NCBI RefSeq assembly: GCF_965237495.1
Contig: NZ_OZ250143.1
Span: forward strand, 2,533,809 to 2,597,808
Length of the DNA stretch: 64,000 nucleotides
From: Candidatus Palauibacter sp.
Lineage (GTDB): Bacteria > Gemmatimonadota > Gemmatimonadetes > Palauibacterales > Palauibacteraceae
Reading direction: 5' to 3'
The position numbers and the translations under genes are program-made. Below the pieces are notes generated by a model. It saw nothing but the letters and a program-made list of their open reading frames with translations. It searched no databases and was not told the origin of the DNA. Below, piece after piece: positions 52,583-62,537 of the stretch; the first letter of the stretch is position 1, and each line of letters begins with the position of its first letter.

Positions 52583-53670
52583 GTCGCGCTACGCAGGGCG
52601 TCATGCTGCGCGGCGTGGAAAAGCGGTACGGCAAGGTCGTGGCCCTGCGGACGGTGGACCTCGAGGTCCGGCCCGGGGAGCTGATGGTGCTGGTGGGCCC
52701 CTCGGGGTGCGGCAAGAGTACCCTGTTGCGCCTCATCGCCGGGCTCGACGAACCCACCTCGGGGGAGGTGTGGATCGGAGGACGGCGCGTGGACGATGTC
52801 GAGCCGGGCGCCCGGGACGTGGCCATGGTGTTCCAGAGCTACGCGCTCTACCCGCACATGACCGTGGCCCGGAATCTGGGCTTCGGCCTGCGCGTGCGCG
52901 GCACGCCGCGCGCCGAGCTCGAGCGGCGCGTCGCGGACGCCGCCGCCGCCCTCGGGCTCTCCGAGCTGCTGTCGCGGAGGCCCGGCCAGCTGTCCGGGGG
53001 AGAGCGCCAAAGGGTGGCTCTGGGACGCGCCATGGTCCGCGATCCGGGCGTGTTCCTGTTCGACGAGCCGCTCTCGAACCTGGACGCGGAGCTGCGCTTG
53101 CGGACGCGCGACGAGATCGCCGCCCTGCACCGGCGCCTCGGCACGACGATGATCTTCGTGACGCACGACCAGGTGGAAGCGCTGTCGCTGGGCCAGCGGG
53201 TCGCGGTCATGGATCGCGGCCTGCTCCAGCAGGTGGGCACGCCGCAGGAGGTCTACCGCCGACCGGGCAACCTGTTCGTGGCGGGCTTCGTGGGGTCGCC
53301 GCCCATCAACCGCATCCCCCTGTCCCGCGACGAAGGGGGGCGCCTCGCGGGCGGTCCGTTCGCGCTCGCGGAGCCGTCGCGCCTCGACCGCGCCACGCTG
53401 GCGGTGCGGCCGGAGGACCTCGCGCTGGCCGAGACCGGCGACTTCCGGGCCACCGTGCTCCGCGTGGAGCCGCTGGGCAGCGAGCAGCGCGTGCACCTGG
53501 ACGGCCCCGGCGACGCGGCGTGGGTGGCGCGCGCATCCCCCGCCCTGCGGGTCGCCCCTGGCGACCGCGTGAGCGTCTCCGTCGCATGGGACCGCAGTCA
53601 CCTGTTCGGTCCACATGGCCGCCGCGAGGAGGCCGCGCCGCGACCGATGGGCCGGCCGGCCTCGCGATGA
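52579..53670 (+). CDS. sugar ABC transporter ATP-binding protein (MalK/UgpC/MsmX type)
   Basis: Walker A GPSGCGKST, signature LSGGERQRVALGRA, Walker B VFLFDEPLSNLD, and a C-terminal TOBE-like domain. A GTG start overlaps the upstream TGA. Confidence 0.9.
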   Translation: MSRATQGVMLRGVEKRYGKVVALRTVDLEVRPGELMVLVGPSGCGKSTLLRLIAGLDEPTSGEVWIGGRRVDDVEPGARDVAMVFQSYALYPHMTVARNLGFGLRVRGTPRAELERRVADAAAALGLSELLSRRPGQLSGGERQRVALGRAMVRDPGVFLFDEPLSNLDAELRLRTRDEIAALHRRLGTTMIFVTHDQVEALSLGQRVAVMDRGLLQQVGTPQEVYRRPGNLFVAGFVGSPPINRIPLSRDEGGRLAGGPFALAEPSRLDRATLAVRPEDLALAETGDFRATVLRVEPLGSEQRVHLDGPGDAAWVARASPALRVAPGDRVSVSVAWDRSHLFGPHGRREEAAPRPMGRPASR

Positions 53671-54998
53671 CGAGCCCTCGACCGCGCGCGCGCCGGCCCC
53701 TTCTGGCCGCCACCGGTTGCGCCACCGTCGTCCTCGCGGCGGTCGCCTGCGGCCCCGGCGAGTCCGGCGCCGCGTTGCGCGTGGCCCTCTGGGCCGGAGG
53801 CCACGAACTCGAGATCGAGCGGCAGGTGGCCGACCGCTACGAGGCCTTGCACCCCGGCGTGCGGGTCGTGCTCGAATCGGCTCCCAACGGATACGAGGAG
53901 CGGCTGCTGACCTCGATCGCGGCGGGGCGTCCGCCCGATGTCTACCTCATGGACTCACCCGACATCCCCACCTTCGTGGAGCGCGGGCTGGCGCTGGACC
54001 TCGCACCCTGGCAGGAGGCGCTCGGCTTTCGACCGGACAGCGTGTTCGGGCCGGTGGCGGATGCGTTTCGCCGGGGCGAATCCATGTTCGCGCTGGCGAA
54101 GGACTTCACTCCCATGGTCCTGTACGCCAATCGGGCCGCGCTCGCCGCCGCGGGCGTCGAAGACCTTCTGCCGGCCGCGCCGTCGCCCACCGCGCCGCCG
54201 GCCGGCTGGACCTGGAGCGACTTCCGGCGGGCCGCCGAGGCGGTCGTCGCGGACACCGACGGCGACGGTCGGAAGGACGTGTTCGGGTTCGACTTCCCGC
54301 GCAACCTGTACCAGTGGATTCCGTTCGTGTGGTCGGCGGGAGGCGACATTCTGGCGCCCGACGGCAGCGGGGCGGCGGGCTACATGGACGGGCCGGAAGC
54401 GCTGGAGGCCTACCGCTTCCTCACGGCCCTGGCGGAGGACGGCCTCACCCCGGGCGCGCAGTTTGTCCAGCAGGGAGACCCCGCGCGGGAGGCGCGCTTC
54501 GCATCGGGCGGACAGGCGTTCCTGCTGTCGGGCCACTGGACGCTCCCCGTGTTCCGCGATCTGGTGGAGGCGGGCGCCCTGGACCTGGCCATCGTCCCCA
54601 TTCCGCACCATCCGTCGCGGACGGCGGCGTCCAGCGTACTGTACGCGTCGGGGTGGGCCGTGCCGCCCAACGCGCCGCACCTGCGCCGGGCCATCGACCT
54701 GGCTGGCTTCCTCGCCTCGCCCGAAGCGCAGCGCATTCGGGCGCGGTCTGGACTCGCCATTCCCGCGCGGATGGATGTGGCGGCGGAGATCGCCGCGGCG
54801 GACGGCACGGGGGTCGAGGGCGCGTTCATCGCGCTGGTGGAGGGCGCGCGGATGACGTGGGGCGCCCGGGTGCGCGACTTTTCCCGCATCGAGGCGCTGG
54901 CGGTCGAGATCATGGACCGCCGCTTGGTGCGGGGAGAGTCCCTCGCATCGAGCGCCTCGGACGTGGCCCGCCGCATCGACGCGGAGTTCGGGTGGTGA
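53667..54998 (+). CDS. ABC transporter substrate-binding lipoprotein (family 1 sugar SBP)
   Basis: Signal/lipobox LLAATGCATVVLAAVAC. Typical SBP_bac_1 length and aromatic pattern. Its ATG overlaps the ATPase stop (ATGA). Confidence 0.8.
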   Translation: MTSPRPRARRPLLAATGCATVVLAAVACGPGESGAALRVALWAGGHELEIERQVADRYEALHPGVRVVLESAPNGYEERLLTSIAAGRPPDVYLMDSPDIPTFVERGLALDLAPWQEALGFRPDSVFGPVADAFRRGESMFALAKDFTPMVLYANRAALAAAGVEDLLPAAPSPTAPPAGWTWSDFRRAAEAVVADTDGDGRKDVFGFDFPRNLYQWIPFVWSAGGDILAPDGSGAAGYMDGPEALEAYRFLTALAEDGLTPGAQFVQQGDPAREARFASGGQAFLLSGHWTLPVFRDLVEAGALDLAIVPIPHHPSRTAASSVLYASGWAVPPNAPHLRRAIDLAGFLASPEAQRIRARSGLAIPARMDVAAEIAAADGTGVEGAFIALVEGARMTWGARVRDFSRIEALAVEIMDRRLVRGESLASSASDVARRIDAEFGW

Positions 54999-56758
54999 GC
55001 GGCGTGCGGCAGCCGGCCCTCGCCGCCCTCGCCGCCCTCGCCCTCGCCGCCGGCTTCGGGTTGGTTCTGGCCGTCGGCGCGGGCCGGGTGGAGGGCGCAC
55101 GGGTGGAGGGCGCGGAAGCCGAGGCGCGCATGGCGGCCGCGCTGTGGGAGGAGGAGGGGGGCGGCGCCCAAGCCGTGGCCAGGCTGCTCGGCGAACGGGC
55201 GACGATCGTCGGCGCGGGCGCCGGAGGCGCCGGGGCGGGGGCGTACGCCTACGAGGCCGGCGCGCTCGAGCCCGCCGCCTGGATCGCGGTCGCGCCGCGC
55301 CGCGCGGGCGGCCCCTGGACCGCCTTCCCCGCCATCGCCACCGCCATCGCGCTGGGGGGCGTGGCGCTCATCTCGGGCTGGGCCGCCGCCCGGCGCCGCG
55401 GTCCGACGCGCTCGCGCTACCCGGCGGGCATCGCCCTCCTCTCCGTCGGCTGCATCGCCCTGACGGCGGTCGCCGCCGAGCGATGGGCGGACCGCGAACT
55501 CCGATCGCTGAGCGCCGCCACGGTGGCCCAGGGCGCGCGAGCCGTCGAGCTTGTCATGGCGACTGGCGCGGATCCAGCCCGCGCCGCCCGGGTCGCCGGC
55601 CTCCCGTGGGCCGAGGACCGCTCGCTGGAGTCCGCGAACCAGCAGTGGACCATGCCGGCCGCAGTCGCGGCGGCCATCGCCGCCTCGCCCGAACGAGGCG
55701 TGGTGACGCCGTACGCGGTGGAAGCGGGCGGCGCCACCTACCACGCGGCCCGCGTCGCCGACGTCCACCTCGCCTTCCTCGGATACGAGCGCACCGCCTC
55801 GCCCGCCGTCGCGCTGGCCGCCGCGGGCGGGCTCGCCGCCCTGCTGCTGGCGCTGGTCCTCCACCTCGCGCAGCTCGCGGCCCGCCCCCGCGCCTTGCGC
55901 CGAACCCTGGCGGCGTGGGGCCTCCTCGCGCCGGCGGCGGCCCTCATCCTCGCGTTCACCCTTGGGCCGCTCCTCTTCTCCCTATGGATCTCGCTGCACG
56001 AATGGCGCCTCATCGACCCCGCGCCCCTCTTCCTCGGACTCGACAACTATGCGGCGCTGCTCTCGAACCGCGAGTGGTGGTCGGCGATCGGGAACACGGC
56101 GCTGTTCACGCTGCACGTGCCCGCCGCGATGGCCGTCGCCCTCGCCCTGGCGCTCCTCACCCAGGGGTCGCGCCGCGGACTGCGCTGGGCCCGGCTCGCC
56201 CTCTTCCTGCCCGGCATCACCAGCGTGGCGGCGATCGCGGTGGTGTGGAAGTGGCTGTTGAGCGACCAGTACGGACTGCTGAACCAGGTTCTGGTGCGCG
56301 CGGGGCTCGAGTCCGTCCCGTGGCTCACCTCGCCCGACACCGCGCTCATCAGCCTGATGATGATCGGCATCTGGATGGTCGTGGGCTATCAGATGGTGGT
56401 CTTTCAGGCGGGCCTCGCCGCCATCCCGCGCGACTGGTACGACGCGGCCCGGGTCGACGGCGCGGGGCCGTGGCAGCGGTTCCGCCACGTCACCCTGCCC
56501 GGCCTGCGCCACACCCTGTTCTTCGTGCTCGTCACGTCGGTCATCGGATCCTTCCAGGTCTTTGGACTCGTCTATGTGATGACCGAGGGCGGCCCGCTGG
56601 GCGCCACCGATGTGGCCGTCTATCACATTTACCGGGAGGCGTGGGAGTTCCTGCGCTTCGGCAACGCGGCCGCCATGAGCTGGCTGCTGTTCGCGGTCGT
56701 GTTCGCCGCCACCTGGCTGCATTTCCGCTTCCTCGACACGCGCCGCGCCCATGGCTGA
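54995..56758 (+). CDS. ABC transporter permease (MalF/UgpA-like) with a ~300-aa N-terminal multi-TM extension
   Basis: The C-terminal 290 aa form the canonical permease with the EAA-type loop region (DAARVDGAGPWQRFRHVTLP). A GTG start overlaps the SBP stop (GTGA). The extension contains ~4 extra predicted TM helices. Confidence 0.75.
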   Translation: MSGVRQPALAALAALALAAGFGLVLAVGAGRVEGARVEGAEAEARMAAALWEEEGGGAQAVARLLGERATIVGAGAGGAGAGAYAYEAGALEPAAWIAVAPRRAGGPWTAFPAIATAIALGGVALISGWAAARRRGPTRSRYPAGIALLSVGCIALTAVAAERWADRELRSLSAATVAQGARAVELVMATGADPARAARVAGLPWAEDRSLESANQQWTMPAAVAAAIAASPERGVVTPYAVEAGGATYHAARVADVHLAFLGYERTASPAVALAAAGGLAALLLALVLHLAQLAARPRALRRTLAAWGLLAPAAALILAFTLGPLLFSLWISLHEWRLIDPAPLFLGLDNYAALLSNREWWSAIGNTALFTLHVPAAMAVALALALLTQGSRRGLRWARLALFLPGITSVAAIAVVWKWLLSDQYGLLNQVLVRAGLESVPWLTSPDTALISLMMIGIWMVVGYQMVVFQAGLAAIPRDWYDAARVDGAGPWQRFRHVTLPGLRHTLFFVLVTSVIGSFQVFGLVYVMTEGGPLGATDVAVYHIYREAWEFLRFGNAAAMSWLLFAVVFAATWLHFRFLDTRRAHG

Positions 56759-57569
56759 CCGCGCGATGGCGCCGCGGACGGCGCGGGGGCTGCTGCTCGC
56801 CGCGGCGTGCCTGGTCATGGCGGCGCCCTTCGCGTGGATGGGACTGACGAGCCTCATGGGACAGCTTGAAGTGTTCTCCGGGGGCATCCTGCCGCGGGCG
56901 CCGCGGTGGTCGAACTACCCAGAGGCGCTGACGATCCAGCCCTTCGGGCGGTACTTCGTGAACTCGCTGGTGTTCGCGACCGTGGTGGCGGCGGGCCAGG
57001 TCGCGACCTCGGCCGCCGCCGGCTACGCCTTCGCCCGCCTCGACTTTCCGGGGCGGGATGGGCTCTTCATGCTCTTCCTGTCGACGATGATGGTTCCAGC
57101 GGTCGTCGTGCTCATCCCCCGCTTCCTCATGATCGAGGCGGTCGGCTGGATCGACACCTACCAGGGGCTCATCTCCACGGAGCTTGTCTCGGTGTGGGGC
57201 ATCTTCCTCATGCGACAGTATTTTCGGACGATGCCCCGGGAACTGGAGGACGCCGCGCGCGTGGACGGCGCCGGGCACCTGCGCATCTTCTGGAGCGTCG
57301 CCCTGCCGCTCGCGAAGCCCGCCGTGGCCACGCTCGCGCTGTTCGCGTTCGTCGATGCGTGGAAGAACCTGCTGTGGCCGCTCCTCGTCACCCGGTCCAT
57401 GGAAATGCGGGTCGTCGAGGTGGGGATCGCCGCCTTCCATTCGACCTACGAAATCAACTGGCCCTACCAGATGGCGGCCGGCGTCGCCGCGGTGCTGCCC
57501 ATCGCGCTCCTGTTCCTGTTCACCCAGCGGTATTTCGTGCGGGGGATCCAGCTGGAGGGGATCCGGTAG
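56751..57569 (+). CDS. ABC transporter permease (MalG/UgpE-like)
   Basis: 272 aa, 6 TM helices, EAA motif region EDAARVDGAGHLRIFWSVALPLAKP. Confidence 0.85.
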   Translation: MADRAMAPRTARGLLLAAACLVMAAPFAWMGLTSLMGQLEVFSGGILPRAPRWSNYPEALTIQPFGRYFVNSLVFATVVAAGQVATSAAAGYAFARLDFPGRDGLFMLFLSTMMVPAVVVLIPRFLMIEAVGWIDTYQGLISTELVSVWGIFLMRQYFRTMPRELEDAARVDGAGHLRIFWSVALPLAKPAVATLALFAFVDAWKNLLWPLLVTRSMEMRVVEVGIAAFHSTYEINWPYQMAAGVAAVLPIALLFLFTQRYFVRGIQLEGIR

Positions 57570-57602: not shown

Positions 57603-59561
57603 ATGATGCGCGTCGGGGCCTTCGAGGCGCGCCGTTGGGCCGGCCTCGTGTTCGCGGCCGGACCCGACGACGGCATCGGCCTCCGCCTCGTCTTCACGAC
57701 TCCCGGAGGCCAGCGCCGCGAGTTGGAGGACTGGTACTGGATGGTCGCCCGCGTCGGTCCCCACGCGCCGGACGGATGCTACGCGCGCATGGAGTTCGAC
57801 CTCGCCGCCGAGCCGTCGCCCGCGTCCCGCCCCGGAGAGAGCACACTCACTCTGGAGTGGTCGCGCCGCGAGGACGCCGTGGCGCTGCGGGCGGTGGCGC
57901 GCGCGCCGGGCCGGGTGGAGCTGGTGGGCGACGATCCGTGGGGGTGGAAGGCACGGTGGGAGGAAGCTTCCGACGGCTGGCGCGCGGCGCTTGGAAGCGT
58001 GGAGATCGCCGCTGCCTTCGGGCCTCGCGCGGGGGGACGCGCGGCCACCGTGGTCGCCTGGGAGCCGAGGGGGGCGCCGTCTCGATCCGCTGCCGCCCTG
58101 GCCCGCGCCCGACGCCTTCTCCCGGGGCTGGATCGCTGGATCGACGACGCGCGCGCCGACTGGGACCGCCGCCGTCCGCGTTCGTCGGGGGCCGCGGAAG
58201 GACTGGTCGAAGCCGTCGCGGACAACCTGATGTGGACCGTCCTCCTGCAACCGGAGACCGGACGCCTGTACGCGCCGGCAGGACGACGCTGGATTTTTCC
58301 GAAGCCGGGGGACGGCGCACGGGAGGGCGCGCCGGCTCCCGACGACTGGACGGTCTTCGGGTGGGATTCCTTCTTCAACGCCCTCGCGCTCGCCACCGCG
58401 TCGGGACGCCTGGCCTGGGACGTTCTCCTCGCCGGGCTCGAGTCGCGCTACCCGAACGGGAACGTGCCCAACTGGAGGAGTCGGCTCGGCGGCACGCCCG
58501 ACCGCTCCCAGCCCTCGGTCGGGTCCTTCGCGGCGCTGAAGCTGCATCTTGCGCGCCCTGATGTGGACGCGCTGGCCGCCGCCTGGCCCGGGCTCCGCGC
58601 GTGGAGCGACTGGTGGGTGGCCGACAAGCGTGGACGCCCGCGCCGGGAGGGCCTCTCGCCGGGACTGTTGGCGTGGGGCTCGGATGCGGAGCTGGTTCCG
58701 GGGCGCGAGCAACTCCCGGAGTGGGAAGTGGGCGCGAACGGCCATCAGCGCGCGGCGTGGGAATCGGGCCAGGACGACCTGCCGCTGTGGGAAGAGGCGA
58801 AATGGGATCCTGGGCGGGAAGTCCTTGCCATGTCCGCCGTCGATCTGTGCAGCTACCGGGCCCTGGACCTGGAGTGCCTGTCGCGGATTGCCCGCATCCT
58901 GGGCGACCCGGCGGCCGCGCGACGGCTGGAGGCCGAGCGCGACCGCCTCGTCGCGGCGATGAACGGGGTGTTGTGGTCCGAGGCCGCCGGGCTCTACCTG
59001 GACGAGCTGCCTGCGGGTCGGTCTCCGCGCGTGGCGTCGTCGAACTTCCTTCCCTTGATTGCCGGCGTGCCGTCGGCGCGGCGGGCGCGGCGCATGGTCG
59101 GCGTGCTGCGCGACCCCGCGCGCTTCTGGGGCGAATGGGTGCTGCCCACGATCTCGCGCGATGACCCCGCGTTCGACGACCAGCAGTACTGGCGCGGTTC
59201 CATCTGGCCGCCCATGAACTACCTCGTGCTGCAGGGATTGCGGCGCTACGGGTTCGACGAACTCGCCAGCGAGCTGGCGTGGAAGGGAGCGCTCATGTTC
59301 CTGGCCGACCGCCGGCGCACGGGGTTCTGCCGGGAGAACTTCGACGCGCGCAGCGGGCGGGGGCGGGGCCGCCGCTTCCAGAGCTGGGGGCCGCTGTTCG
59401 CGCTCGGCGCCATCGAGGAGTTCGTCGACGCCTGTCCATGGCGCGGATTGCGCATCGGCTCCCGGCTGCCCGCGTTCGTCGCCGCCCAGGCGACCGGCCG
59501 AGCCCGCATCGAGGAGCTCCGCGTGGCGGGTCGGGCGCGGACGGTCGAGCTGTCGCGATGA
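57603..59561 (+). CDS. cytoplasmic six-hairpin glycoside hydrolase, GH63-like, copy 2
   Basis: 652 aa; VFGWDSFFNALA, NYLVLQGLRRYG, and C-terminal barrel features. It is paralogous in architecture to the first gene of the operon. Confidence 0.6.
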   Translation: MMRVGAFEARRWAGLVFAAGPDDGIGLRLVFTTPGGQRRELEDWYWMVARVGPHAPDGCYARMEFDLAAEPSPASRPGESTLTLEWSRREDAVALRAVARAPGRVELVGDDPWGWKARWEEASDGWRAALGSVEIAAAFGPRAGGRAATVVAWEPRGAPSRSAAALARARRLLPGLDRWIDDARADWDRRRPRSSGAAEGLVEAVADNLMWTVLLQPETGRLYAPAGRRWIFPKPGDGAREGAPAPDDWTVFGWDSFFNALALATASGRLAWDVLLAGLESRYPNGNVPNWRSRLGGTPDRSQPSVGSFAALKLHLARPDVDALAAAWPGLRAWSDWWVADKRGRPRREGLSPGLLAWGSDAELVPGREQLPEWEVGANGHQRAAWESGQDDLPLWEEAKWDPGREVLAMSAVDLCSYRALDLECLSRIARILGDPAAARRLEAERDRLVAAMNGVLWSEAAGLYLDELPAGRSPRVASSNFLPLIAGVPSARRARRMVGVLRDPARFWGEWVLPTISRDDPAFDDQQYWRGSIWPPMNYLVLQGLRRYGFDELASELAWKGALMFLADRRRTGFCRENFDARSGRGRGRRFQSWGPLFALGAIEEFVDACPWRGLRIGSRLPAFVAAQATGRARIEELRVAGRARTVELSR

Positions 59562-61723
59562 AGGGCACGGAGCCGGCCGAACGGCCGGAGCGGCCCACGC
59601 TCGTGATCCTCGCCGCCGGGCGGTCCACCCGGTTCGGTCGCGCCAAGCAGCTCGAGCCCGTGGGGCCGGGCGGCGCATCGCTGCTCGAATACGCGATTCA
59701 CGACGCCTTGCGCGCGGGCTTCGGGCGCTTCGTACTCGTGGTGAGGGAGAGCCATCGCGACGAGTTCGAGGCGCGCCTGGCTCCGCTGCGGGCGGCGGGG
59801 GTCGCGCTCTCCTTCGCCTGCCAGCGCCTCGCGCACGCCGACCTCGTGCCGCTCCCCCCGCCCGGGCGCGTCCGGCCCTGGGGCACGGGATTCGCGGTGC
59901 TGGCCGCGGCGGCCGCCCTGCCCCGCCGGGGTCCGTTCGCCGTCTGCAATGCGGACGACTTCTACGGGCGGGCCGCTTACGAGAGCCTGGCGCGCTTGCT
60001 CGCGGCCCCTCCCCCGGGCGTTCGCGCCTTCACCGTCTCCTACCCCTTGGCCGGCACCCTGTCCGCCTTCGGCGGCGTGTCGCGCGGCCTCTGCGAAATG
60101 AAGCCGGACGGCACGCTGCTCCGCATGACCGAGGGCCTGGACCTCCGCCTCGAGCGCGAGGCGACGCGGACGGGTTCCGGCGCCGAAGCCACCGCCGCCG
60201 GCGGGCGCAGTGCCGTTACTGGAACCACCACCGCCGGGACGTCGATCCGCGTCGACGCGGACAGCCAGGCGTGCATGGGGCTGTGGGGGTTCTTCCCCGA
60301 GATCCTGCCGCTGCTGGCGGAACGCTTCCGCGCCTTCCTCGCCGCCTGCCCCGGGGCCGACGACGAGTTCTACCTCTCCGAAGCCGTGAGCCACCTGGCC
60401 GCCGCCGGACGGGCGCGCTGCGGCCTTCTGCGCGCGGGCGAGGGTTGGATGGGCCTCACCTTCTCCGGCGACCGCGCGGGCGCCGCGGCCTCGCTCCGGC
60501 AGCTGACTGCGGCCGGGGCCTATCCCGCCGATCTCCGGACGCCGCCCGATCCCCCGGAGTCGGCCCCGCGCGCGCAGGCCCCGCCCATCCGCCCGCCTCA
60601 GGCGCCGCCCCGTGGGGTCGCGATCGCTCCCGGGCGCATCAACCTGATCGGGGAGCACCTCGACTATAACGGCCTCTCCGTGCTCCCGATGGCGCTCGAG
60701 CGGAACATCCGCCTGGAATTCGAGGTGCTGCGCCAACCGGCGGTCGAACTCACAGGCGATGCCGACCATGGCCCCTTCGCCTTTCGCCTGGACCGGCCGA
60801 TCGAACCCGCACCCCAAGGCCACTGGTCGAACTACGTGAGGGCCGCCGCCAGGGGGTTGCTGGACCACGGCGTGGAACTGAGACGAGGCATTGGGGGGAA
60901 CGTCGCCGGGACCGTGCCGGTGGCGGAGGGGCTCTCGTCGTCGTCCGCCCTCGTTGTAGCGTCGGCGCTGGCCCTGTTGCACGCGAACGAGAAGCATGTG
61001 GAGGTGCTGGAGCTGGCGGCGCTGCTGGCCCGCGCCGAGCGTTTCGTCGGGTTGCAGGGTGGCGGGATGGACCAGGCGGCGTCTCTCTGCGGAGCGAAGG
61101 GGCACGCGCTCAGGATCGACTTCGGGCCGCTGCGCGTGACGCCGGTGCCGGTGCCCGAGGGATGGCGGTGGGTCGTCGCGTCGTCGCTGGCGCGCGCGAA
61201 GAAGGCCGGGTCGGCGCGCGAGCCGTACAACGAGCGGCGGGCCCAGTGCGCGGAGGCGCTCGAGCGGCTGGGCCGGGCATCCTGGCTGGAAGTGGTGGTG
61301 GCCGACGAGGCCGAGTTCGCATCCCTCCTGGCCGGGGCGCGCCGGTCGCTGCCGCCCACGCTGTGGCGGCGCTTTCGCCATGTGGCGACGGAGGGCCGCC
61401 GCGTGATCGAGGCCGAGGCCGCGCTGCACCGGGAGGACATGGCCGCCTTCGGCACGCTGATGAACGCGTCCCACGCCAGCCTGCGCGACGATTTCGGCGT
61501 GAGCACGGCGGCGCTGGACGAGATCGTAGAGGTGGCCCTCGACGCGGGCGCGGCGGGGGCGCGGCTCACGGGGGCGGGATTCGGCGGCTGCGCAATCGCG
61601 CTCTGCCGGGCGAGCCGGGCGGAAGGCGTGATGGCCGCGCTGCGCGAGCGCTTCTACGCTCCCCGGGGCGGGGTCGGCGGCGGCGCGCTGTTCGTGGCCG
61701 CAGCGTCTGATGGAGCACGGTGA
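59557..61723 (+). CDS. bifunctional sugar-1-phosphate nucleotidyltransferase / galactokinase-family GHMP sugar kinase (FKP-like fusion)
   Basis: N-terminal LVILAAGRSTRFGRAKQLEPVG (NTP-transferase G-loop). C-terminal galactokinase signature GRINLIGEHLDYNGLSVLP, GHMP motif GLSSSSALVVA, and a C-terminal GAGFGGCAIAL. Its ATG overlaps the upstream stop (ATGA). The frame and start come from the internal Met of track ORF 59279..61723. Confidence 0.75.
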
Positions 61724-61938: not shown

Positions 61939-62511
61939 TCAGCATCCCGAAATCAAGCCGCAACCCACTATCCCGCAGCCTCCAACCCCTCCACCGACTG
62001 CCAGCACAAGGCGGGTGTGGCGATGCCACGTAGAGCGCGCCACGGCCCGAGAGCGTTCCCCACATTGCGAGTCCGATATGGCCGGCAGCACCGCATTTAC
62101 CTTCAAGGTGTCCCTCTCGAGCCTCGGATCCAGGCGATCGTAGATCAACGCGGGAATACTGTCGATCGATACAGGCATCAACCCGGAATCCTCGGGGGGC
62201 GTGAAGGTCAAGAACACACAGCCCGGCCAGGTGCGCCCAGACATGCCGATCCTGACCCTCACGATATATCTGCCGTTCGAGAACGTCTTCACGGTCGGGA
62301 TCCACGCGCTGGGACCTTTGCAATCTCTGCCAACCCAACCTTCAACTGTGACATCGTACACCGCTCGGCCATCAACATCGGTGACGACTCCAGCGATGTT
62401 CAGCTCGCTCTGGCCGTGCGGCAAGACCAAAGGAGGAGAAGGCGTCGCCGGATCCGTGCCGCAGCCCACGGCAACAATACAGCTTACAGCGAGACATCCC
62501 CAGGTATTCAT
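61939..62511 (-). CDS. hypothetical lipoprotein
   Basis: MNTWGCLAVSCIVAVGC lipobox with GGGGGAG just upstream; lies in a lower-GC segment. Confidence 0.45.
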   Translation of the reverse strand: MNTWGCLAVSCIVAVGCGTDPATPSPPLVLPHGQSELNIAGVVTDVDGRAVYDVTVEGWVGRDCKGPSAWIPTVKTFSNGRYIVRVRIGMSGRTWPGCVFLTFTPPEDSGLMPVSIDSIPALIYDRLDPRLERDTLKVNAVLPAISDSQCGERSRAVARSTWHRHTRLVLAVGGGVGGCGIVGCGLISGC

Positions 62512-62537
62512 CTTTCTCCCCCTTTCGCTGTCCGGCG

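Follow-up and report, generated by a model that had tools for sequence, protein, structure and literature searches.

Near the 3' end of a 64,000-nt stretch of DNA from Candidatus Palauibacter sp. (Gemmatimonadota; contig NZ_OZ250143.1, positions 2,533,809 to 2,597,808; hereafter the window), a single gene encodes a sugar-1-phosphate nucleotidyltransferase joined to a galactokinase. We conclude that the product is probably a bifunctional enzyme, converting galactose via galactose 1-phosphate (Gal-1-P) to UDP-galactose in a pathway that is independent of GalT. Bifunctional sugar-1-kinase/NDP-sugar pyrophosphorylases are already known as a kind; what is new here is a transferase of the predicted GalY type fused to GalK, and its occurrence outside the gut Bacteroidetes and Akkermansia.

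The initial annotation had described an uninterrupted open reading frame (ORF) at this place, which stands, and had given it a start at 59557 and a length of 722 aa, which do not: the ATG lies at 59558 and the protein has 721 aa. A longer reading from a GTG at 59279 was rejected, because it would reach 283 nt back into the upstream gene, and orthologues of 721-743 aa disagree with it. The GC content at the three codon positions (0.79/0.59/0.85) is that of real genes in a genome of ~70% GC, which is also the value of the window. The ATG of the fusion gene sits on the TGA of an upstream GH63-like gene (ATGA, 59558-59561), and this 4-nt overlap suggests translational coupling. On the + strand 3' of the fusion gene we found no convincing terminator. 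Pfam resolves the protein into NTP_transf_3/NTP_transferase (aa 16-150), GalKase_gal_bdg (351-384), GHMP_kinases_N (425-512) and GHMP_kinases_C (620-700). All three motifs on which the first reading had been built were located, LVILAAGRSTRFG at aa 15-27, GRINLIGEHLDY at aa 359-370 and GLSSSSA at aa 458-464, and its central proposal, a single polypeptide with an N-terminal sugar-1-phosphate nucleotidyltransferase and a C-terminal GHMP kinase of galactokinase signature, is borne out by Pfam, TIGR00131 and the orthologues.

The C-terminal half passes the cut-off of the TIGR00131 'galactokinase' equivalog (242.6 bits, cut-off 226.65, E 6.5e-72); the lineage-specific NCBIfam NF galactokinase models stay below their cut-offs for the fusion protein, as expected for a distant phylum. 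GalKase_gal_bdg is matched at E 1.2e-14, and the galactokinase signature G-R-x-N-L-I-G-E-H-x-D-Y is matched by GRINLIGEHLDY. Aligned to E. coli GalK, residues R28, E34, H35, D37, D174 and Y223, which from general knowledge of GalK structures we take to be galactose-contacting or catalytic, correspond to R360, E366, H367, D369, D505 and Y557; all six are kept here and are invariant in 32 of 32 aligned fusion proteins. The same holds for the three GHMP motifs, of which motif II (P-x-G-x-G-L-S-S-S-A) is represented by VAEGLSSSSA and motif III (T-G-x-G-x-G-G) by TGAGFGGC. The PDB matches of this half begin with the N-acetylgalactosamine (GalNAc) kinase GALK2 (1.9e-53) and continue with GALK1 (1.3e-49) and then the Lactococcus, yeast and Pyrococcus galactokinases, and in structural comparison by Foldseek the top matches are galactokinases (GALK1, TMt 0.83; P. 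furiosus GalK, TMt 0.90). An earlier suggestion that the domain might be a glucose-1- or mannose-1-kinase finds no support in view of the equivalog score and the six conserved GalK residues. Because the corresponding halves in relatives are co-encoded with an SGLT-type symporter and GalE, galactose is also the ordinary choice of substrate. Thus, the C-terminal half reads as a complete galactokinase, for which D-galactose is the best-supported substrate.

For the N-terminal half, phmmer matched aa 12-326 to PDB 3pnn_A at E 3e-54, with an identity of 36% in the Foldseek alignment and 39% in another alignment. 3PNN is a 303-aa structural-genomics protein from Porphyromonas gingivalis, on which our literature search found nothing relevant. 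After 3PNN, the next matches of the family profile were GalU-type UTP-glucose-1-phosphate uridylyltransferases at ~1e-7. The secondary structure of this half is that of a single alpha/beta domain; an AlphaFold2 (AF2) model of it reached a predicted TM-score (pTM) of 0.88, and Foldseek matched the model to 3PNN (TMt 0.88) and then to RmlA (~0.67 over ~325 columns). Within the G-loop and lysine motif LVILAAGRSTRFGRAKQL, aa 18-32 are invariant in the 32 fusions except at R22 (30/32) and A29 (22/32); the G-loop (G-x-G-x-R) and lysine are those of LAAGRSTRFGRAKQL, with G21, R25 and K30 invariant. Many of these positions are also invariant or nearly so across the 3PNN family, whose invariant motifs are LAAGxxxRxGxxKQL, PWGT, NADDFYG, GGVSRG, WGF, EF and WxGxT. 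An hhalign comparison with GalU, itself weak (E 0.003), placed the G-loop and lysine on those of GalU and NADDFYG on the GalU 'LPD' region. No curated NCBIfam model reached its cut-off on the N-half family. Since the next relatives are GalU by profile and RmlA by fold, this half is probably a hexose-1-phosphate nucleotidyltransferase, and probably one of the pyrimidine-nucleotide type.

The joining of the two halves is authentic. In a search of 5.8 billion clustered proteins, ~36 clusters (at the 90% identity level) share the two-domain architecture and are 76-95% identical; those with a source name all belong to Candidatus Palauibacter or other Gemmatimonadota, and the database label is 'galactokinase' only. 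Scanning genomes recovered it from nine independent assemblies, of which several are complete chromosomes, and the N half of the window's protein is 96% identical to its counterpart in NZ_CBDANE010000003.1. Each catalytic or signature position of both halves is kept in at least 30 of the 32 aligned proteins. Mean identity among these is 81% and 85% in the two domains and 46% in the linker, which is 15-30 aa long in Palauibacter and 82 aa in a second fusion clade. The AF2 model of the whole fusion likewise shows two confident domains and a disordered linker (mean predicted local distance difference test, pLDDT, 84.5). Because architecture and motifs are conserved while linker length varies in frame, the frameshift artefact that the initial annotation had named as a danger is excluded, the continuous ORF being present in all of these clusters and assemblies.

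To place the fusion among its relatives, HMMER was run over 1.84 billion cluster representatives and the best 150 matches were listed. Among these, two representatives join a 3PNN-type transferase to GalK: P0011, of the Palauibacter clade, and P0038, which represents the second clade (~800 aa) and has a member, P0037, in locus L001 (L001:10001-12439). The L001 fusion carries the 82-aa linker, which is charged, and lacks the GH63 and ATP-binding cassette (ABC) transporter genes as neighbours. Neighbour-joining trees of the two halves, which carry no support values, are broadly congruent; in both, the Palauibacter fusions form a clade on a long branch and L001 clusters with split-gene relatives, not with them. 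Given this placement and a linker of 82 rather than 24 aa, we tentatively propose that the transferase-GalK architecture arose repeatedly, with at least two and probably three independent origins. In a further and unrelated fusion, P0185 (658 aa; L167:4377-6353), a canonical PF00483 transferase runs straight into a GalK-like kinase, in a bacterial context; the called start of P0185 leaves out the G-loop, and the protein was seen only in two short Logan contigs.

Elsewhere the same two genes are separate partners. On a Longimicrobiales chromosome the order is transferase, SSF symporter, GalK, and a GalE-like epimerase gene lies upstream in divergent orientation; the stand-alone GalK is 56% identical to the C half (tblastn) and the transferase 50% identical to the N half (E 2e-98). 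We surveyed 59 non-fusion Gemmatimonadota-type genome loci found via the transferase, counting neighbours within 7 kb: GalK was present in 49, an SSF symporter in 54 and GalE in 12. The closest solved relatives of the symporter are vSGLT and human SGLT1/2. A single Palauibacter metagenome-assembled genome (MAG), RHO1_bin_50, holds both the fusion (L006) and a split set with GalE (L038), and since Palauibacter also keeps the split set, the fusion is a paralogue, apparently a specialised one. By these comparisons it would have arisen from the transferase/SGLT-type symporter/GalK set that is standard in Gemmatimonadota.

Beyond this phylum, 3PNN was used as the seed for scanning metagenomes, which yielded 80 Bacteroidota-type loci at 51-71% identity; in 18 of them gal genes stand beside the transferase. 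The orders include GalK-GalE-transferase-GalM (L098, whose transferase is identical by exact look-up to the Alistipes communis 'nucleotidyltransferase' BBL13540.1), GalK-transferase-GalE (L103, human gut), GalK-GalE-GalM-transferase (L118, whose transferase falls in a 90%-identity cluster with a named Bacteroides sp. member) and GalK-transferase-GalM (L158); several further Bacteroidota-type loci show transferase-GalE. In Hymenobacteraceae, and likewise in eight metagenome loci, the gene that comes after the transferase encodes instead a kinase of the APH fold, clearly homologous to the N-acetylhexosamine 1-kinase NahK (PDB 4wh1, E 4.7e-79). In view of both the GalK and the NahK pairings, the recurrent partner of the family is an anomeric (C1) sugar kinase of either fold. 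A reading of the family as AmgK/MurU-like was rejected, the partner kinase in Bacteroidota being NahK-like and P. gingivalis being reported to lack AmgK (PMC7670621). Transferase-NahK pairs were seen at L059:7004-9074 and in L061-L063, L067, L071, L072, L075, L078, L080, L140-L146, L153, L154 and L161. The L059 pair has a NagB/PIG-L fusion, a CBM9 protein and a GH109-like enzyme on its flanks, and loci of this type look like a module for UDP-N-acetylhexosamine (UDP-HexNAc) salvage that would be independent of the GalT-type enzyme LnpC.

A tblastn search with E. coli GalT gave no match in the fusion protein, in the 64-kb window or in the 160 loci examined, a search that divergent types of GalT could escape. 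Possession of galK and galE without galT is familiar from many Bacteroidota and from Akkermansia. From phyletic patterns, Ravcheev and Thiele predicted in silico that a protein they called 'GalY' is a non-orthologous replacement of GalT (Ravcheev and Thiele, 2017; PMC5583593). GalY is represented by Amuc_0031, a 291-aa protein of PF00483, and was reported from 70 gut genomes, 15 of which have it in a cluster with galE and two in a cluster with galM and a permease; in Alistipes indistinctus, GalY, GalM and a Na+ symporter are consecutive genes (PMC5583593). Another publication of 2017 listed GalT as missing in Algoriphagus, and a 2026 paper on Akkermansia still holds that there is no GalT candidate (PMC13313206). 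In Alistipes communis (L098), in Bacteroides contigs and in Gemmatimonadota, it is a 3PNN-family gene that holds the place predicted for GalY. Length, Pfam family and gene position beside galM in Alistipes together strongly suggest that the 3PNN family is the predicted GalY.

In the window, the fusion is the last cistron of a seven-gene operon, whose genes follow in series with 4-nt overlaps or short gaps (Table 1). The series is plainer still in L166, a related complete chromosome with called genes, whose gene order is the same. Two hydrolases bracket an ABC importer, and cross-matches by tblastn in L008 and L011 put their mutual identity at only ~26-27%. The second lies immediately upstream of the fusion in nine of nine Palauibacter loci and is a distant relative of the Thermus mannosyl/glucosylglycerate hydrolase TTHA0978 (2z07, 2.7e-17) and of YgjK; for the first, no PDB relative was found by sequence. 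That the neighbours are alpha-glucosidase- or mannosidase-like, as proposed at the outset, is upheld: they are GH63-like, of the alpha-glucosidase or mannosylglycerate-hydrolase kind. The best PDB relatives of the binding protein are distant oligosaccharide-binding proteins, including an arabino-oligosaccharide binding protein. Provided that the kinase is a galactokinase, the operon should act on something that contains or yields galactose; floridoside, galactosylglycerate and collagen-type Glc-alpha1,2-Gal were considered as conceivable substrates.

Table 1. Coordinates in the window of the operon genes and of the domains and motifs of the fusion protein.
Feature	Position	Strand	Basis or remark
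MGH1-like (GH63-like) hydrolase, operon gene 1, start uncertain	50255..52582	+	Pfam MGH1-like_GH 2e-41; orthologue of 772 aa in L166
ABC ATPase, MalK/UgpC type with TOBE domain, start approximate	52579..53670	+	ABC_tran and TOBE_2
Extracellular solute-binding protein, family 1, start approximate	53667..54998	+	SBP_bac_1/8
ABC permease 1 with long N-terminal extension, start approximate	54995..56758	+	BPD_transp_1 only at aa 399-569 of 585
ABC sugar-transporter permease 2	56751..57569	+	BPD_transp_1; present in 6/9 Palauibacter loci
GH63-like hydrolase, second	57603..59561	+	Pfam MGH1-like_GH / Glyco_hydro_63 / Trehalase
Fusion gene, nucleotidyltransferase-galactokinase	59558..61723	+	2166 nt = 721 aa + TGA; Pfam, TIGR00131, orthologues
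N-terminal sugar-1-phosphate nucleotidyltransferase domain, aa 12-326, 3PNN / predicted 'GalY' family	59591..60535	+	3pnn_A
G-loop and lysine motif LVILAAGRSTRFGRAKQL, aa 15-32	59600..59653	+	Alignment of fusions
NADDFYG, aa 131-137, probable metal-binding Asp region (inferred role)	59948..59968	+	D133 and D134 family-invariant
Gly/Ala/Thr-rich lineage-specific insertion, aa 202-215	60161..60202	+	pLDDT <50; absent from 3PNN in alignment
Pro/Ala/Arg-rich interdomain linker, aa 327-350, 24 aa	60536..60607	+	pLDDT <50 at aa 333-347
C-terminal galactokinase domain, aa 351-721	60608..61720	+	TIGR00131 above cut-off, PDB matches, Foldseek
Galactokinase signature GRINLIGEHLDYNG (R360, E366, H367, D369)	60632..60673	+	Aligned to E. 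coli GalK
GHMP ATP-binding motif GLSSSSA, aa 458-464 (motif II, VAEGLSSSSA, aa 455-464)	60929..60949	+	Alignment
GGGMDQ with catalytic base D505 (E. coli D174)	61058..61075	+	Alignment
PYNERR, containing Y557 (Y223 in E. coli; GalNAc kinase GALK2 has Phe)	61223..61240	+	Alignment
GHMP motif III TGAGFGGC, aa 671-678	61568..61591	+	Alignment

Permease 1 (~590 aa; 598 aa in L166) owes its size to an Ala/Gly-rich, apparently membrane-spanning N-terminal extension of ~300-400 aa that is conserved in Palauibacter. In every fusion locus of both clades, a large protein of ~1000-1300 aa with DUF5107 and tetratricopeptide repeats (TPR) adjoins the fusion gene, downstream in L003-L011 and L166 and upstream in L001 (L001:4199-8083); for the window it is expected ~4 kb past the 3' end. 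It does not stand beside the split transferase-symporter-GalK operons, except for a 27% match in L064. When this protein was compared by hhalign with E. coli GalM, as a check for likeness to a mutarotase, the result was not significant.

The pathway that we propose would begin with a glycoside that is imported by the ABC system and hydrolysed in the cytoplasm, releasing galactose. Because the fusion ends a hydrolase/importer operon, the sugar is probably freed there from an imported alpha-glycoside or oligosaccharide. The C-terminal GHMP domain would then phosphorylate alpha-D-galactose at C1 at the expense of ATP, and the N-terminal domain, on its flexible 24-aa tether, would combine Gal-1-P with a nucleoside triphosphate (NTP), most likely UTP, to give UDP-galactose and pyrophosphate (PPi). 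The second step would be a reaction of the EC 2.7.7.10 type, the 'Isselbacher' route, and not the uridyl exchange of GalT. A GalE encoded elsewhere would equilibrate UDP-galactose with UDP-glucose, which could yield glucose 1-phosphate by pyrophosphorolysis or pass into glycans; alternatively, UDP-galactose might be used directly for glycan synthesis. The fusion would keep the two activities stoichiometric and Gal-1-P low, and accumulation of Gal-1-P is toxic (PMC13313206). We infer the sugar, the nucleotide, any channelling between the sites and the physiological direction of flux, catabolic or salvage, from the relationships described above.

In its chemistry this route shares the GalK step and the UDP-galactose intermediate with the Leloir pathway (GalK, GalT and GalE), whereas the place of GalT, a HIT-family enzyme that transfers uridyl groups from UDP-glucose, is apparently taken by a pyrophosphorylase that depends on an NTP, has the RmlA/GalU fold and is part of the same polypeptide as GalK. 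The Isselbacher route itself is known from the UDP-sugar pyrophosphorylases (USPs) of plants, Leishmania and Bifidobacterium, which convert UTP and Gal-1-P to UDP-galactose and PPi. Unlike the ~300-aa 3PNN family, USPs are members of the UGPase family of large eukaryotic-type enzymes (~500-600 aa), and no kinase is fused to them. The GalY proteins resemble the N half in length (~290-300 aa), in belonging to the PF00483 superfamily, in occurring in a galK+/galT- setting and in clustering with galE, galM and a Na+ galactose symporter, but they are stand-alone proteins of gut Bacteroidetes and Akkermansia, whereas the present one is fused to GalK in another phylum. Anomeric phosphorylation followed by nucleotidyl transfer is also the logic of NahK/LnpC in galacto-N-biose and lacto-N-biose (GNB/LNB) utilisation and of AmgK/MurU in N-acetylmuramic acid (MurNAc) recycling; however, the NahK and AmgK kinases have the APH and not the GHMP fold, LnpC is GalT-like, and none of them is fused. 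MurU, moreover, is a shorter transferase of ~220 aa.

Two fused enzymes come closest in layout. FKP of Bacteroides fragilis (FKGP in Arabidopsis) likewise converts a free sugar to a nucleotide sugar by means of an N-terminal pyrophosphorylase and a C-terminal GHMP anomeric kinase (PMC11982464). Its pyrophosphorylase, however, is of another family, is ~496 aa long and contains a beta-helix domain as well as a second site for nucleotide, and FKP has a three-helix linker subdomain (first predicted as 153 residues), uses GTP and has a kinase specific for L-fucose (PMC11982464). The zebrafish protein DrGKUP, a glucuronokinase and putative UDP-glucuronate pyrophosphorylase, also carries a bacterial-type short nucleotidyltransferase N-terminal to a GHMP sugar-1-kinase, but it is eukaryotic, its kinase is a glucuronokinase, and its authors compared the transferase only with RmlA and GalU (PMC3938481). 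The parallel to FKP drawn in the initial annotation thus stands as regards domain order and the logic of kinase plus pyrophosphorylase; as regards family membership it does not, no relation to FKP being detectable by Pfam, by phmmer against the PDB or among the top 50 Foldseek matches. As judged from sequence and fold, the fusion resembles FKP and zebrafish GKUP in its working and is a member of neither family.

Several observations weigh against the proposed route to UDP-galactose. The sequence cannot tell whether the transferase uses UTP, dTTP or another nucleotide; we considered the invariant Q89 as a uracil-contacting Gln and dropped it, since the weak hhalign alignment (E 0.003) does not put it on the base-contacting Gln of GalU. 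The fusion operon has no GalE, GalM or obvious galactosidase, and GH63-like families are known for acting on alpha-glucosides and mannosyl-/glucosylglycerate, with no release of galactose. The negative GalT search covers the 64-kb window and the flanks of the loci, not the whole Palauibacter genome. Our literature search, outside which most subscription journals lie, found no biochemical test of GalY or of the 3PNN family. Finally, 62 of the 80 metagenome loci seeded with 3PNN have no gal gene nearby. P. gingivalis, from which 3PNN comes, is moreover asaccharolytic. These last two points suggest that the 3PNN family is not exclusively tied to galactose.

The alternative that we take most seriously, while holding it to be unlikely, leaves the chemistry unchanged and gives it another purpose, biosynthesis or salvage, or another or wider choice of sugar, GalNAc or L-arabinose for example. 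The enzyme would then recycle galactose, or a sugar resembling it, into an NDP-sugar for cell-surface glycans, as FKP does with fucose, and would not feed catabolism. This reading would account for an operon that lacks GalE and GalM. A split transferase-symporter-GalK-GalE set is already present in Palauibacter, in the very MAG that holds the fusion, so that the fused paralogue may differ in role; the fusion clade lies on a long branch in both trees; the best single PDB match of the kinase half is a GalNAc kinase; and in Bacteroidota this family of transferases has NahK-type HexNAc kinases as partners. Nevertheless, the kinase retains Tyr557 at a position occupied by Phe in GalNAc kinase, and it scores as a GalK equivalog; an importer with two hydrolases looks catabolic, and no glycosyltransferase genes adjoin the operon. 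It is improbable that the transferase half is dead, regulatory or active on an unrelated substrate, leaving a protein that functions only as a galactokinase. Such a reading agrees with the plain NCBI name 'galactokinase', with the lack of a curated family over the N half and with the zebrafish GKUP fusion, in which pyrophosphorylase activity was barely detectable (PMC3938481), but the G-loop, K30, PWGT, NADDFYG and GGVSRG are kept in 32 of 32 fusions (31 of 32 for G172 of GGVSRG and Y136 of NADDFYG), the transferase domain is far better conserved than the linker (81% against 46%), and the family pairs systematically with anomeric kinases of two folds.

We regard it as very improbable that FKP has here an orthologue or variant, one that makes GDP-fucose or some other GDP-sugar: the order of transferase and then GHMP kinase is shared, and GHMP kinases share a fold (PMC11982464), yet there is no Pfam fucokinase match, no FKP appears among the PDB sequence matches or the top structural matches, the transferase half is RmlA/GalU-like and without a beta-helix domain, the kinase is a GalK equivalog, and the linker is a disordered stretch of 24 aa. 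Scarcely any credence is left for a sequencing or assembly frameshift joining adjacent genes, which has in its favour the general possibility of such errors in metagenome-derived sequence of 72% GC and faces a continuous ORF in ~36 clusters and nine assemblies including complete chromosomes, with the frame kept as linker lengths vary.

The conversion of galactose to UDP-galactose by the fusion could form part of a larger picture, which we put forward as a speculation that, taken whole, is possible and somewhat doubtful: the 3PNN-type transferase would be an NTP-dependent GalT-type replacement across Gemmatimonadota, many Bacteroidota and probably Akkermansia, serving Leloir-type pathways with GalK and GNB/LNB-type HexNAc pathways with NahK, and the Palauibacter fusion, the two GH63-like hydrolases, the ABC importer and the DUF5107-TPR protein would together constitute a new pathway for a galactose-containing alpha-glycoside of marine or host origin, with Gal-1-P passed directly between the active sites. 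The GalK fusion and the near-universal transferase-symporter-GalK operon of Gemmatimonadota provide strong guilt-by-association for the GalY assignment. The missing-GalT gap of Bacteroidota, Akkermansia and Gemmatimonadota thereby becomes directly testable, and the natural fusion is a ready-made construct for probing the assignment, even if the architecture itself will be no surprise to a specialist. If active, the enzyme would be a compact means of making UDP-galactose from galactose with one protein, of practical interest in chemo-enzymatic glycan synthesis, a field in which FKP already serves. The present labels would then also be put right, namely 'galactokinase' in the case of the fusion and, in that of the family, 'nucleotidyltransferase' or 'hypothetical protein'.

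The DNA on either side of the operon has features of its own. Right after the operon, at 62001-64000 of the window, the GC content falls from ~0.72 to 0.60, and a minus-strand ORF at 62538-63980 encodes 480 aa with no Pfam match. L166 has instead a hypothetical gene and an extracytoplasmic function (ECF) sigma block there; because its content differs, the region past the operon appears to be variable and is possibly acquired DNA. Upstream of the operon, 42274-45453 and 46533-49292 encode two large eukaryote-like repeat-type proteins, namely a Sortilin/BNR-repeat protein and a leucine-rich-repeat protein that also contains a bacterial Ig domain and is weakly matched by the M66 peptidase family. 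Eukaryote-like repeat proteins of this sort are typical of host-associated (sponge) symbionts.

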